Below, in pieces: positions 36,615-47,221 of a stretch of DNA of 64,000 nt. Every line of letters starts with the position of its first letter. Positions within the stretch are counted from its first letter, which is position 1. The DNA is taken from contig CAWGED010000005.1 of NCBI GenBank assembly GCA_963821525.1, forward strand, positions 544,001-608,000, written 5' to 3'. The notes under the pieces were generated by a model that saw only the letters and a list, made by a program, of their open reading frames with translations, was not told the origin of the DNA and made no database searches. A program made the translations under genes and the position numbers. Source of the stretch: an uncultured Gemmatimonadales bacterium (GTDB lineage Bacteria > Gemmatimonadota > Gemmatimonadetes > Gemmatimonadales > GWC2-71-9).

Positions 36615-37109
36615 ATGACAATCGGCCAATCTCTCCTCCCCGAATTCGATCAGGAAATGATGCTGACTCGCAGGCTCCTGGAACGGGTGCCGAGCGAAAA
36701 GGTCCAGTGGAAGCCGCATCCGAAATCGTTCCCCCTGGGGCACCTGTCCCAACTGGTGGCGTGGATCCCGGGCTGGATCACCAACACCCTGCGCAAACCC
36801 GAGCTGGACCTCGCGGCCGGCGGCGGCGGTTACTCCTTCGAGACCACCGACAACCTGGTCAAGCTGCTGGACGAGAACGTTCGCGGCGCGCGCGAGGCGC
36901 TGGCCGAGGTGAATGATGCGACCTTCGCGCAGCCCTGGTCGCTCAAGATGGGCGAGAAAGTTTTGTTCAGCGCGCCGAAAGGCGTCGTGGTGCGGAACCA
37001 CATCAGCCATCTGGTGCACCATCGCGGACAGCTCACGGTCTATCTGCGCCTGCTGGATGTGCCGCTGCCGGTGATCTATGGGCCGACCGCCGACGAGAAG
37101 CCCTGGTAA
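36615..37109 (+). CDS. DinB/YfiT-family protein
   Basis: TRRLLERVP, WKPHPKS and HLVHHRGQLTVYLR...YGP. Confidence 0.9.
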   Translation: MTIGQSLLPEFDQEMMLTRRLLERVPSEKVQWKPHPKSFPLGHLSQLVAWIPGWITNTLRKPELDLAAGGGGYSFETTDNLVKLLDENVRGAREALAEVNDATFAQPWSLKMGEKVLFSAPKGVVVRNHISHLVHHRGQLTVYLRLLDVPLPVIYGPTADEKPW

Positions 37110-37227
37110 TGTCGCCCACTCGACGCGAAGTCCTGACCCAGCTCGCCGCCGTCGCCGTCCTCCCGCTTCGTGGCTGGGTCCGGACCGACCAGGACCCGCT
37201 CGACGGCACCATCGCCGACTATCAGGC
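37109..37227 (+). pseudogene. 5' fragment duplicate of the amidase gene at 39952
   Basis: 119 bp matching 39952-40070 with 3 mismatches by manual alignment, then an abrupt break. Confidence 0.85.
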
Positions 37228-37304
37228 GAGGGGATCCTCATCGGCGTGCTGGTTTGTGCTGCGGCCGGCGTTCGGGATCGTGACAGCGGCCGCAGCCCCG
37301 GACC

Positions 37305-39951: not shown

Positions 39952-41535
39952 ATGTCGCCGACCCGACGCGAAGTCCTGGCCCAGCTCGCCGCCGTCGCCG
40001 TCCTCCCGCTTCGTGGCTGGGTCCGGACCGACCAGGACCCGCTCGACGGCACCATCGCCGACTATCAGGCCGGCCGCCGGCGCGGGGAGTGGACCGCCCT
40101 CGAGGTCACGACCCGGGCACTCGAACGCTGTCGCGCCGAGGGGATGAGATGGCGCGCGATCGACGTCCTCTCGCCTTCTGCCCTGGACGAGGCGCGCGCA
40201 GCCGACGCCCGCCTGCGCGCCGGCACGATGCACGGACCGCTCGACGGCGTCCCGGTGTTCGCCAAGGCGATCTACGACATGCAGGGGCTGCCGACTACCG
40301 GATCCAACGCCGATTGGGCGCGGCTTTTCCCGGAGCTGCTGCGCCGCGACGCGCTCGAGGTGTCGCGACTCCGTGCGGCGGGTGCCATCGTCCTCGGGAA
40401 GACTGCCGCCGACGACTTCGCCTACCACGGCAACGGCACCAGCAGCCACACCGGCCAGGTGCTGAATCCGCACGATCCGACCGGCACCAAGACACCGGGA
40501 GGATCCAGCGCCGGCACGGCGGTCGCGGTCGCGGCCGGAATGGCCTTCGCGGGACTCGGCACCGACGACGGCGGCTCCAACCGCATCCCGGCGCAGTTCA
40601 CCGGAGTCGTCGGGATGAAGCCGACCTTCGGCCTCGTCCCGCGCACCGGGGTGATCCCGACCTGGCCCTACCTCGATACCCACGGGCCGCTCGCCCGCAC
40701 GGTCGCGGATGCGGCACTCCTCCTCGCCGCGATCGCGGGGCCGGACCGGTCGGACCCGCTGGCGCTCACCGGCAAGTGGGACAGCGCTCCGCTCCTGACG
40801 CTGCGCGACGACGCACTTGCCGGCGTGCGGCTCGGACTGGTGGAGGCGCATGTCCCGCGCAAGCAGATGACGGCGGAGGCGCTCGCGATGTGGGACCGAG
40901 CGGTAGGCGACCTCCGCGCGGCCGGTGCCGTGGTCGAGCCCTTCACGCCGGCGGTAACGCTTGCGACCTACCGGAGTGCCTTCGCCGCGGCCTCGGGCCG
41001 CCGCGGCGACGTGGTCGGCGACCCCAAGGCGCCGGCTCCCACGGCCAACGCGCTCTATCACTACTTCGCTCGGCGCACCAGCAAAGCTCGAGAGGCGGTG
41101 CGCCAGGGCTACCCGGCCTACCGCGCCTTCTACGACGTGCTGCCCGAGACCTTCGAAGAGTGCGAACCGCTGCTCGACCAGCCACTCACCGGGGACCAGG
41201 CGGGGAGTGCCTTCGCCCGCTCCCGCGCCGAGGTCGTGGCAATGTTGGCGGAGTCGATGGGTGCGGCCGGTGTCGCGGCGATGGTGTATCCCACCATGCC
41301 CTTCAACGCTCCCCGCGTCGTCGATGACTGGCCGGACATCCGCACCACGCTCGGTTACGGCAACTGGCTCGGCTTGCCCGAGGTCTCGGTTCCCGCGGGG
41401 TTCGGTGCGGATGGGATGCCGGCGATGAACCTCTCAGTAGTGGGGCTTCCGGGCGAGGATGCGCGAGTGCTGGCACTGGCGCATGGGTATGAGCGGCAGT
41501 CGCGGCGGTTCGTCGCGCCGGCGAGAGCGGGGTGA
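39952..41535 (+). CDS. amidase-signature family enzyme with Tat-like N-terminus
   Basis: TRREVL; GPLDGVP..AK, GGSSAG, GTDDGGSNRIPA, GPLARTV. Confidence 0.9.
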   Translation: MSPTRREVLAQLAAVAVLPLRGWVRTDQDPLDGTIADYQAGRRRGEWTALEVTTRALERCRAEGMRWRAIDVLSPSALDEARAADARLRAGTMHGPLDGVPVFAKAIYDMQGLPTTGSNADWARLFPELLRRDALEVSRLRAAGAIVLGKTAADDFAYHGNGTSSHTGQVLNPHDPTGTKTPGGSSAGTAVAVAAGMAFAGLGTDDGGSNRIPAQFTGVVGMKPTFGLVPRTGVIPTWPYLDTHGPLARTVADAALLLAAIAGPDRSDPLALTGKWDSAPLLTLRDDALAGVRLGLVEAHVPRKQMTAEALAMWDRAVGDLRAAGAVVEPFTPAVTLATYRSAFAAASGRRGDVVGDPKAPAPTANALYHYFARRTSKAREAVRQGYPAYRAFYDVLPETFEECEPLLDQPLTGDQAGSAFARSRAEVVAMLAESMGAAGVAAMVYPTMPFNAPRVVDDWPDIRTTLGYGNWLGLPEVSVPAGFGADGMPAMNLSVVGLPGEDARVLALAHGYERQSRRFVAPARAG

Positions 41536-42089: not shown

Positions 42090-42217
42090 ACCTCGCCTTC
42101 CCACTCATCATCCGGCGCCCTTCTCACCTCTCACATCTCACTTCTCACGCTTTTCAGCTAGATTACCCCGTCGCTCGATTAGCCCCCGGGCCCCTCATCC
42201 CCGTGCCGAAAGGCCAT

Positions 42218-42379
42218 GTGCCCAAGCGCAACTATGGATTCGAGAAGCGTCAGAAGGAGCTTGCCAAACTCCAGAAACGCGAGCAGAAGGCTCAGCGGCG
42301 GGCGGAGCGAGCCGCCAGTCCCGAGGAGCCGGAGCTGGAGGTTCAACCCACCGACCCTTCCGTTCCTCCAGAGGAGTGA
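42218..42379 (+). CDS. small basic-then-acidic protein (53 aa; not in ORF track in this frame)
   Basis: Manual translation MPKRNYGFEKRQKELAKLQKREQKAQRRAERAASPEEPELEVQPTDPSVPPEE, with GAAAGG upstream. Confidence 0.7.
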   Translation: MPKRNYGFEKRQKELAKLQKREQKAQRRAERAASPEEPELEVQPTDPSVPPEE

Positions 42380-42389
42380 GGGGCAGAAC

Positions 42390-42479
42390 AATTGGAAATT
42401 GGTAATTGCAAATTGATAATTGGCTTCTGACTCGAGGCTCGCTATCAATTACAAATTACCAATTCCCAATTCCCAATTG
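42390..42479. repeat. inverted heptamer arrays (aattggt-like vs aattacc-like)
   Basis: The same family occurs at 43655-43742, 44570-44600, 47100-47209 and about 10700-10735. Confidence 0.85.
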
Positions 42480-42490
42480 CCTCGACGGTC

Positions 42491-42646
42491 TTAGTGACTC
42501 GTCCGTATGATGATGGTGTCCTTCATGATGAAGCCGCCCTTGGGACCCTCGCTCCGGACCGACAAATCCTTCAGGGTCCGCTTGGCGAGGGATAGCCGCT
42601 TGGTGCCGTCCTTCGCTTTGTTCTCTGCCTTCCGTGGTGCCGACAT
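42491..42646 (-). CDS. double-glycine leader precursor peptide 3 (51 aa)
   Basis: MSAPRKAENKAKDGTKRLSLAKRTLKDLSVRSEGPKGG-FIMKDTIIIRTSH, with RBS AGGAGG. Confidence 0.85.
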   Translation of the reverse strand: MSAPRKAENKAKDGTKRLSLAKRTLKDLSVRSEGPKGGFIMKDTIIIRTSH

Positions 42647-42723
42647 CTTGCCCTCCTGAGACTAGTGAGTGAGATCTGGAATCTCGTTGTGTAACTGATC
42701 AGTCGAGGCCTGTTGGTCTAAGA

Positions 42724-42882
42724 CTATCGGCCCGCTCGTCCGTACGATTCCGGAACCCCGCTGATGAAGCCTCCCTTGGGTCCCGCGCTCCGAACTGAGA
42801 GGTCCTTCAGGGTCCGTTTGGCGAGGGAAAGCCGCCTCGTGCCGCCCTTCGCTTTGGTGACTGCCTTCTCTCGTGCCGACAT
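42724..42882 (-). CDS. double-glycine leader precursor peptide 2 (52 aa as read)
   Basis: MSAREKAVTKAKGGTRRLSLAKRTLKDLSVRSAGPKGG-FISGVPESYGRAGR, with RBS AGGAGG. Confidence 0.85.
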   Translation of the reverse strand: MSAREKAVTKAKGGTRRLSLAKRTLKDLSVRSAGPKGGFISGVPESYGRAGR

Positions 42883-42938
42883 CTTGTCCTCCTGGGACTA
42901 GTGAGTAGCTCTGGAATCTCGTTGCCGCGCCGTTGCGC

Positions 42939-43127
42939 TTAGAGAAACTTCTTCGGGCAATTGGAGCTCGACGGCGGCGGCTGGGGGCAGCTCCAGGTAA
43001 TGGGGGGACGAAGCCACCCGCCCCTTGGACCGGCGCCGGGAACCGTCAGGTCTCGCAGCGTCAGTTTGGTGAGCGAGAGCTTCCCTTTGCCCTCAGCCTT
43101 GAGCGATGATTTGATTCTCGTAGTCAC
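42939..43127 (-). CDS. double-glycine leader precursor peptide 1 (62 aa; Cys/Ser/Thr/Trp/Pro-rich core)
   Basis: MTTRIKSSLKAEGKGKLSLTKLTLRDLTVPGAGPRGG-WLRPPITWSCPQPPPSSSNCPKKFL, with RBS AAGGAG. Confidence 0.85.
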   Translation of the reverse strand: MTTRIKSSLKAEGKGKLSLTKLTLRDLTVPGAGPRGGWLRPPITWSCPQPPPSSSNCPKKFL

Positions 43128-43251
43128 GGTGGTGCTCCTTCTAGTGAATTGTTGGGTTCAGTCGCGCTCATGTTGGTAATCGCAATCGGGCTGCCGATCC
43201 CGACAAGGCTCAAACCTCAACGTCGGATTGTGAGATCTGACCGAACCACCC

Positions 43252-43656
43252 ATGCCCCTCTCAGTCGGCCAGAAGGCCCAACGCTCGCTTCACCTGACCG
43301 AAGAGCACGTTCGGCTCTACGCTCAGATCACCGGCGATCACAATCCGCTGCACTTTGATCCTGACTTCGCGGCGGGAACCAGGTTCGGACGCCTGGTGGT
43401 GCAGGGAGGACTCACGACGGGCCTGCTCCATGCGCTCGTCGCGATGGATCTGCCGGGGCCCGGCACGGTTTTCTTGAGTCAGAACTGGAAATTCGTGGCC
43501 CCGGTGTATCATCGGCGACACGATCACCGCGGAAGTCGAAGTGCGCAGCGTGCACCCGACCAAGCCCGTCACCCAGCTCGGCGTGAGGGTGTGGAGGGAG
43601 GGGGGGAGACGGTGCTTGAGGGGGAGGCGTGGTGCTATCGGTTTGGGGCGGAATAA
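43252..43656 (+). CDS. MaoC-family dehydratase (internal frameshifts)
   Basis: TGDHNPLHFD, FGRLVVQG, LPGPGTVFLSQ...FVAPV. Confidence 0.88.
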   Translation: MPLSVGQKAQRSLHLTEEHVRLYAQITGDHNPLHFDPDFAAGTRFGRLVVQGGLTTGLLHALVAMDLPGPGTVFLSQNWKFVAPVYHRRHDHRGSRSAQRAPDQARHPARREGVEGGGETVLEGEAWCYRFGAE

Positions 43657-43688
43657 TTGGTAATTGAAAATTGGTAATTGGTAATTGA

Positions 43689-47092
<3,404 letters not shown>

Positions 47093-47221
47093 GGGGTGGG
47101 AATTGGTAATTGGAATTGGTAATTGGTAATTGGCAATGGGTAATTTGTTAGTGATTGCGAGCCCTAAGTCAGAAGCCAATTATCAATTTTCAATTACCAA
47201 TTACCAATTGTCGAGCCCCCT

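Follow-up and report, generated by a model that had tools for sequence, protein, structure and literature searches.

The array and its surroundings

The window, by which we mean the whole stretch of 64,000 nucleotides analysed here from a Gemmatimonadales genome (G000, an assembly that is 81% complete), carries on its minus strand three tandem open reading frames (ORFs) for small peptides. Each has its own ribosome-binding site, a leader and a core, and these elements, proposed in a first-pass annotation of the DNA, were all confirmed in the sequence. The features of the locus are as follows.

43252..43656 (+): MaoC-like dehydratase gene (PF01575), divergent, the usual neighbour of the array
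43179..43205 (-): bipartite motif TGTCGG-N17-CGAT, 52 nt upstream of ORF 1, which appears ECF-sigma-like
43135..43140 (-): AAGGAG, ribosome-binding site of ORF 1, read from the sequence
43127-42939 (-): precursor 1, GTG start, 62 aa; a 37-aa leader (43127-43017) ending in GPRGG and a 25-aa core with 2 Cys and 5 Ser/Thr, including two [S/T]xxC units (Thr7-x-x-Cys10 and Ser17-x-x-Cys20)
42882-42724 (-): precursor 2, 52 aa; a 38-aa leader and a 14-aa Cys-free core (42768-42727) with 2 Ser
42646-42491 (-): precursor 3, 51 aa; a 38-aa leader and a 13-aa Cys-free core (42532-42494) with 2 Thr and 1 Ser
42526-42670 and 42762-42906 (-): tandem duplication unit, two 145-nt copies, 86% identical, spanning ribosome-binding site and leader of precursors 2 and 3
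42390..42478 (no strand): AT-rich REP-like palindrome directly downstream of the array, not array-specific
43653..43736 (no strand): second REP-like palindrome, inverted to the first (82 nt, 82% complementary)

An AGGAG/GGAG ribosome-binding site precedes each of the three ORFs, and their GC3 values of 0.74, 0.71 and 0.82 (ORFs 1, 2 and 3) are coding-like. All three leaders contain the LxLxKx5L motif, as the pertinent section of PMC7268733 defines it, and end in Gly-Gly. Searches of Pfam and NCBIfam with the three peptides gave no match. The core of precursor 1 has Cys and Ser/Thr able to form lanthionine; judged from its sequence, precursor 1 would be a bicyclic lanthipeptide, and it appears to have the testable features of a class I precursor, the HMM cut-off excepted. 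The two other cores had been described as lacking Cys, which proved correct in every haplotype of precursors 2 and 3 (5 and 6, respectively). Having no Cys, they cannot give a normal ring-shaped lanthipeptide, and by this requirement precursors 2 and 3 are, on their sequences, not lanthipeptides. Both ORFs come from a tandem duplication. Similarity had been said to collapse in the cores; cores 2 and 3 are nevertheless related at the DNA level, where they align with a one-base offset near a G-run.

The two REP-like palindromes bracket the array together with the MaoC-like gene, and short matches like the palindrome at 42390..42478 occur at many places in relatives. Synteny with the MaoC-like gene is kept in G003, another species of the same genus, and in metagenome contigs; we assign this gene no role in peptide maturation. 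REP-like palindromes at 42120-42155, 42390-42478, 43653-43736 and 47100-47210 separate small gene blocks, the order of which differs among relatives (a 58-aa ORF at 42203-42379, for example, moves), and this arrangement suggests cassette-like shuffling of the palindrome-bounded blocks. A transposase-like sequence in several frames, IS110-like from its translations, lies at 43741-44511 (+) and is missing at this place in the metagenome loci L093 and L109. Elsewhere in the window, the start of an amidase gene (37109-37240 and 39952-40090) is duplicated about 2.8 kb upstream, before a malic enzyme gene. Scans for sigma-70 promoters and terminators gave nothing convincing for the array, and a sigma-54 promoter before ORF 1 was rejected, its GG-N10-GC spacing being present in the window and not kept in other strains.

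Conservation, variation and family of the precursors

A loose leader pattern at most 90 aa from a stop occurs 6 times in the genome, each time in a precursor-like ORF, and 0 times in the reversed genome, and is therefore not a chance product. An HMM built from the array leaders, a search that the first-pass annotation had proposed, gave 6 matches with E-values of 1e-20 to 2e-14 (training set included) against a background of E >8, and found homologous leaders in this genome and in many relatives.

Because the assembly holds split genes elsewhere (for example AnmK and ribonucleotide reductase, two ORFs each), an assembly indel was suspected as the source of the Cys-free core 2. It was ruled out: in 4/4 runs, which come from four studies, the short-read contigs extend across core 2 without a gap or a substitution, and G003 has the same three cores in the same order, with an identical frame in its ORF 2 orthologue. 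The frame of ORF 2 is thus genuine, and the Cys-free cores are real, not assembly errors. The reading of the ORFs as fragments of a larger protein, raised at the outset as a possible objection, was likewise rejected, since the homologues are nearly all short (146 of the 150 top ones below 100 aa).

Pooled minimum-change counts, from which one truncated haplotype (L112) was left out, gave an omega of about 0.17 for the leaders, a value with a downward bias, the metagenome loci having been picked out through a leader pattern, and of about 0.28 for the cores (p=3e-4); the dN/dS comparison called for earlier hence points to purifying selection on the leader. Core 3 alone gave about 0.14 (p=0.005), and cores 1 and 2 gave 0.40 and 0.33 (p=0.08 and 0.06), neither being significant alone. 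The 14-codon core of precursor 2 is retained in its 5 haplotypes, and the GG site is present in all haplotypes, which is partly imposed by the search pattern. The FIM(K/R)DTIIIRT core of precursor 3 recurs on clearly divergent leaders and occurs in 15 of the database proteins listed, all of type 3 or close to it; in type 3 relatives Asp-Thr alternates with Asp-Ser. Each core is conserved among orthologues, so that what had been taken for a variable core is better described as a set of conserved types. The array is also covered by RNA contigs (two runs from two studies), with strand, start and level not readable from them and DNA possibly contributing; flanks left uncovered in the X15 contigs carry no weight.

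A leader-pattern scan of metagenomes, limited to exact matches, gave 35 stretches. Three of the 17 contigs tallied have seven precursor types at the array site and the others have subsets, several of them ended by contig ends. Three types have Cys, three are Cys-free with the full leader, and one has a short leader without LxLxK; the core of one Cys-free type (P0006) contains 10 Ser/Thr. Precursor 2 is absent from L104 and L102, both of which carry types 1 and 3; in L104 these two are adjacent and type 2 is gone, a real deletion. A joint that skips ORF 2 in the X15 contigs may be a repeat-caused graph artefact, though the L104 deletion is real. From these differences we infer that whole precursor genes are gained and lost by tandem duplication and deletion, and that strains carry different sets. 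No enzyme gene was found beside the array in the syntenic contigs inspected. L093 (5836-5993, +) and L034 (8928-9161, -) hold an array member, not present in the window, with a short leader and a core ending in RFDPY-R-[NS][YF]RF, a core end that presumably resembles the N-terminal motif of phage-tail-tube-like proteins.

The profile finds 541 homologue clusters at 50% identity, and 15/149 relatives reach the cut-off of NF038153; the family thus belongs, as one branch, to the LxLxKx5L/GG class I leaders. The three array peptides and the LanA of the enzyme cluster described below score nothing against NF038153. The resemblance to class I lanthipeptide leaders, pointed out on first inspection, is in this way borne out, whereas calling the family undescribed was an overstatement: it grades into the NF038153 leader, although the peptides themselves have no Pfam or NCBIfam match. 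In the 145 cores parsed from the top 150 homologues there are at least two Cys in 102, one in 31 and none in 12, and Cys plus Ser/Thr in 133. Ser/Thr stands at Cys-3 in 106/315 cases against 58 ± 6.5 in shuffled cores (0/1000 shuffles reach it); this excess is a lanthionine signature, and suggests the rings Thr7-Cys10 and Ser17-Cys20 in peptide 1. A K-R-T leader is found in 8/15 Cys-free precursors versus 6/129 others, counts that include related sequences and omit 5 sequences that were not parsed; the Cys-free precursors form a distinct leader subtype, and this could keep them away from LanB.

Among the 201 genomes of the family sampled, the leader occurs in 6 and LanB in 8, all 6 being within the 8; these 6 span three genera and are kin, not 6 independent events. 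Leader matches number 4 to 14 per genome. The phylum sample gave 5/401, one of them marginal. A further genome of the same genus (G004, 75% complete) has neither leader nor LanB and has genes from one side of the array.

A lanthipeptide cluster and a promoter-like motif

LanB, LanC, LanM, radical SAM, YcaO and C39 domains were found in none of the 56 + 6 further ORFs of the window. The lack of such enzymes in these 64 kb, stated in the first-pass annotation, is thereby upheld, and LanB, LanC, C39 and SPASM were placed outside the window. The host genome contains a single LanB, a single LanC and a single C39 domain, which lie together in a cluster on contig C4; YcaO gave 0 matches in the genome, and its only SPASM protein sits in a PQQ-type operon (named from translations). 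The C4 cluster comprises LanB, LanC and LanA, a TIGR04500-like gene with a frameshift, a C39 transporter that bears cNMP-binding domains, and HlyD. The LanB (1074 aa, PF04738+PF14028) aligns almost full length to MibB. The LanC is a stand-alone protein of 443 aa with the motifs HG, WCYG and CHG and the sole LanC-like domain in the genome, and the C39 domain keeps its DCG/H/D motifs; the catalytic motifs of both look intact. Between the leader of the cluster LanA and that of each array member, 14 of the last 21 residues are identical, with the same L-x5-G-P-x-G-G end. We infer from this match that the C4 LanB and LanC are the cognate enzymes of the array. The earlier proposal of maturation in trans thus gains a concrete candidate, the sole LanB-LanC-LanA-C39 cluster, which shares the leader; the processing itself is predicted.

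Canonical C39 recognition relies on Val-4, on Leu-7 and on Leu-12, and LahT uses hydrophobic residues at -4, -7 and -12 (PMC6363468, in the section on recognition). The array leaders have Pro-4, Gly/Ser-7 and Asp-12 (with Leu at -11 and Val at -9), hydrophobic residues at -4, -7 and -12 being absent from all three, and the cluster LanA has the same register. The Gly-Gly site and a C39 transporter with intact catalytic motifs are both present. G000 also encodes six GG peptides of 38-53 aa that have no Cys and whose leader, [KR]DL...GG, is without LxLxK; they lie at C4:77604, 77778, 78648 and 78825 (+), C3:30105 (-) and C10:13274 (-), and the four on C4 stand in tandem, two by two, a short way downstream of both the cluster and a sigma-54 activator. 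These peptides suggest that the transporter probably carries non-lanthionine cargo.

A complex predicted between LanB (residues 50-345) and precursor 3 scored 0.51, compared with 0.02 for the best control, with run agreement of at least 41% of contacts and a partner pLDDT of at least 49. In the calibration this mark was reached by 116/157 solved and 2/215 mismatched pairs, and scores of 0.60 or below by 18/157 solved pairs and both of the mismatched ones, so that a pass at this level is wrong more often than right unless the pair is likely beforehand. The predicted complex lends weak support to leader docking. LanB-leader complexes have been solved, and the prediction may reflect likeness to them.

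The precursors are dispersed, with three loci in G000 and four in G003 and one LanB in each genome. Another precursor of G000 follows a tRNA-Val gene on contig C18; contig C16 repeats this region at 97% identity and is probably a strain duplicate. C16 begins at the 3' end of that tRNA and repeats part of C18 at 84-97%. In locus L003 (8712-10219) two tRNA-Val(CAC) genes flank a precursor and bound the small segment that holds it.

The motif at 43179..43205 probably drives all three ORFs; no such motif was found in the 200 nt upstream of ORF 2 and of ORF 3. It is kept upstream of array modules in other strains. In G000, TGTCGG-N17-CG[A/T]T stands upstream of the array, the lanB operon and the tRNA-site precursor, and a variant stands before the cluster LanA. 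When the 8.66 million positions of G000 were scored with a matrix built from 11 sites of other genomes (11/23 upstream regions tried matched, and the seed was picked after the G000 sites had been seen), the array came at rank 3, the tRNA-site precursor at 5/6, LanA at 26 and LanB at 101. Rank 1 precedes a Ser/Thr kinase gene on contig C12, beside a TIGR02999 sigma gene (C12:223745, above cut-off); the large gene that follows the rank 2 site (C5:784321, +) is unrelated and of unknown family. In G001 and G003 the region matching C5:784321 has a remote precursor next to it. The whole upstream module, tried as a regulon probe, found the array alone in G000; the shorter motif worked.

The closest relatives of the C12 sigma/kinase pair lie inside the lanthipeptide cluster of G006 and beside that of G455, which belong to two other genera; conversely, nothing else in G000 matches the sigma factors (53% and 58%) and the kinase (48%, G006 tested) of these genomes as well as the C12 pair does. 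The motif recurs at G006 and G455 sites not used in training, in G455 at 2/3 remote precursors inspected, and G001 and G003 retain the site that precedes the short kinase. This kinase is kinase-only, with ORFs of 343-357 aa in three genomes, and the G006 and G455 kinases have 914-918 aa. A check for autoregulation turned up no motif above threshold in 12 loci around other TIGR02999 genes, and the literature search returned no published ECF43 promoter consensus. TGTCGG-N17-CG[A/T]T, a bipartite motif of fixed spacing that stands before targets and before the kinase in three genomes, may be the promoter recognised by the C12 sigma factor. Contig C19 (546000-633000) holds >20 related sequences, apparently Ser/Thr kinase genes, as judged from matches to the C4 kinase region.

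Proposed maturation, alternatives and known systems

In the best reading, the array would be a remote substrate cassette of the sole class I lanthipeptide system of this genome, a dispersed library of the prochlorosin type. An ECF43-type sigma factor, activated by the Ser/Thr kinase, would transcribe the array, the LanB operon and the other remote precursors from TGTCGG-N17-CG[A/T]T. The LxLxK leader would dock on LanB, which would dehydrate Ser/Thr, a reaction that proceeds through glutamylation (PMC9993889, as outlined there). LanC would then close two small rings in peptide 1, Thr7-Cys10 and Ser17-Cys20, and the C39 transporter would cut after GG and export the cores with HlyD. Peptides 2 and 3, having no Cys, would leave as linear peptides, and we lean slightly towards their being partly dehydrated rather than unmodified. 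It seems to us probable that transcription of the array goes along with that of the cluster, that LanB reads the leaders and LanC cyclises peptide 1, and that C39 cuts all three peptides at GG and exports them. Against it stand the incompleteness of the genome (81% complete, so that another enzyme may be unassembled), the leaders without canonical C39 recognition residues, though the cluster LanA shares their register, the lack of any NF038153 score for the three peptides, and the K-R-T subtype, which could divert the Cys-free precursors from LanB. Against the regulatory part are the low rank of the LanB site (101), the unrelated gene at rank 2, and the 12 other TIGR02999 loci without the site. 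Signalling or antagonism would fit both the variation of the sets between strains and the control by a kinase. A wider proposal, that within a genome-wide kinase/ECF43 regulon of soil Gemmatimonadales one class I machine makes ringed lanthipeptides and Cys-free linear dehydropeptides from swappable cassettes, some of which signal back to the kinase strain-specifically, is speculative and we regard it as rather doubtful.

The alternatives concern chiefly the Cys-free precursors. They may only borrow the C39 transporter and be secreted unmodified, as pheromone-like or bacteriocin-like linear peptides, with precursor 1 still a lanthipeptide; this is an export sub-case of the preferred route and differs from it on dehydration alone. 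The absence of Cys, the K-R-T leaders, the exact and strongly conserved FIM(K/R)DTIIIRT core, which suits a receptor ligand, and the six further Cys-free GG peptides without LxLxK, four of them just downstream of the cluster, all speak for it. We nonetheless hold it to be unlikely, if the strongest of the alternatives, because the full LxLxKxTLxDL is under purifying selection here and missing in that other GG class, the P0006 core combines 10 Ser/Thr with no Cys, and Asp-Thr alternates with Asp-Ser in type 3 relatives. Another enzyme (a radical SAM enzyme, a backbone methyltransferase or other), absent from the incomplete assembly, could instead modify these precursors, and L077 lends this some colour: there a related cluster adjoins genes for a radical SAM/SPASM protein and a TP-methylase-family protein with a hydrophobic GG peptide. 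Neither L077 enzyme, the methyltransferase included, has a close match in G000, the array has no enzyme gene beside it in the syntenic contigs inspected, and its leader matches a LanB substrate, which makes such an enzyme improbable.

Two further explanations deny the Cys-free precursors a product. As intracellular leader decoys, competing for LanB or the transporter, they would tune lanthipeptide output, and the retained full leader, the non-canonical C39 positions and the motif common to array and enzymes would suit that role; a decoy, however, would have no use for a conserved core, whereas core 3 stays conserved on leaders that diverge, and the GG site persists in all haplotypes (partly required by the search), so that we give this explanation very little credence. 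It is hardly believable that ORFs 2 and 3 are duplicates in decay or errors of the assembly. Their origin by tandem duplication, the one-base core offset near a G-run, the split genes elsewhere in the assembly and the loss of type 2 in some strains would agree with decay or error, but the frame was confirmed in 4/4 runs, a second species keeps both cores, leaders and core 3 have a synonymous excess, and core 3 recurs in the 15 listed database proteins.

The preferred class I reading can be set beside several known systems. Class I lanthipeptides with LxLxKx5L/double-Gly leaders are described for Bacteroidetes in the part of Walker et al. 2020 (PMC7268733) on this leader, which corresponds to NCBIfam NF038153, lant_leader_L1a; viridisin of Thalassomonas is a class I GG-leader system (PMC9680876, in the passages on viridisin), and class I GG-leader clusters with several precursors are already known (PMC9680876, PMC12328550, in the sections concerned). 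The present system shares with these the leader motif, the GG end, the LanB, LanC and C39 cluster, several precursors per system, and Cys/Ser/Thr-rich cores in most of the array family. It differs in the long basic N-terminal extension of the array leaders, in GPxGG without the usual hydrophobic -4/-7, in the absent NF038153 score, in its conserved Cys-free cores and in its Gemmatimonadales host. Its array precursors also lie far from the cluster, unlike the LxLxKx5L/GG precursors in the published accounts, as far as these describe them, which lie within it.

In the class II prochlorosins and synechococsins, one synthetase (ProcM or SyncM) serves scattered and tandem precursors with a GG leader and diverse cores (PMC10783134, in its account of these systems). 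One synthetase per genome, a conserved GG leader and precursors dispersed singly or in tandem (a likeness in arrangement only) are found here too; the enzymes are class I LanB/LanC and not LanM, the leader is short and not Nif11 (a Nif11 search gave no match), and the cores, unlike those of prochlorosins, fall into types that are conserved between strains and between species. The array system thus works like prochlorosins and is not a member of them. The 4 to 14 leader matches per genome compare with 29 to 79 in the systems covered by PMC10783134.

As to regulation, ECF43 sigma factors are activated via phosphorylation by a Hanks-type kinase in EcfK/PknS of Xanthomonas citri and EcfP/PknT of Vibrio, and the output known in X. 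citri is type VI secretion (PMC13147305, in the parts on these pairs). The C12 TIGR02999 sigma gene likewise lies next to a Ser/Thr kinase gene, and the C12 sigma too has an uncharged Thr-containing stretch in sigma2.2, TTTL standing at the place of the ECF43 QTTA (PMC13147305, same parts). Unlike in X. citri, the output here would be a lanthipeptide regulon, and the G000 kinase is short and kinase-only.

Class II bacteriocins are unmodified GG-cleaved peptides exported by ComA-type transporters. Precursors 2 and 3, with a GG site and a short linear core, also resemble the exported unmodified double-glycine pheromones of ComA-type systems, and the array leader differs from theirs in its LanB-type motif and in lacking the L-12/E-8/L-7 consensus (PMC6363468, in its treatment of these leaders). 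In contrast to both double-glycine pheromones and class II bacteriocins, the array has no adjacent transporter, immunity gene or two-component system.

Literature searches on Gemmatimonadota class I lanthipeptide or double-glycine RiPP precursors, which did not extend to subscription journals and supplements, found nothing on this array; those on LxLxKx5L found only Walker et al. 2020, whose supplementary precursor tables could hold family members, and those on ECF43 with lanthipeptide found no paper. Within these searches, three things appear to be new: an enzyme cluster matched to the array, Cys-free cores that are conserved, and a candidate ECF43 regulon. If the proposed route is true, a soil lineage that is abundant and for the most part uncultured would have a class I equivalent of what prochlorosins do, and peptide engineering would profit from a natural LanB/LanC pair with many unrelated cores among its substrates. 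Whether LanB systems form linear dehydropeptides on purpose could be tested directly on Cys-free cores that are conserved behind a lanthipeptide leader. The shared motif would tie to RiPP biosynthesis a phosphorylation-activated sigma group linked to type VI secretion in the account of PMC13147305. Mining centred on clusters misses remote, sub-cutoff, Cys-free precursors, which leader plus promoter motif finds.

In L077 (1170-3065, -), the radical SAM/SPASM and TP-methylase-family genes with their hydrophobic GG peptide are divergent from the lanthipeptide cluster, and we take the TP-methylase-family gene to be borosin-like. In the ESM Atlas, matches to clusters named 'class I lanthipeptide leader' were obtained at 0.80-0.86, as leads only. 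Tandem Cys-rich precursors with a related K-x-T-L-R-D-L leader were seen in L078, L080, L085 and L072, records titled Acidobacteriaceae.
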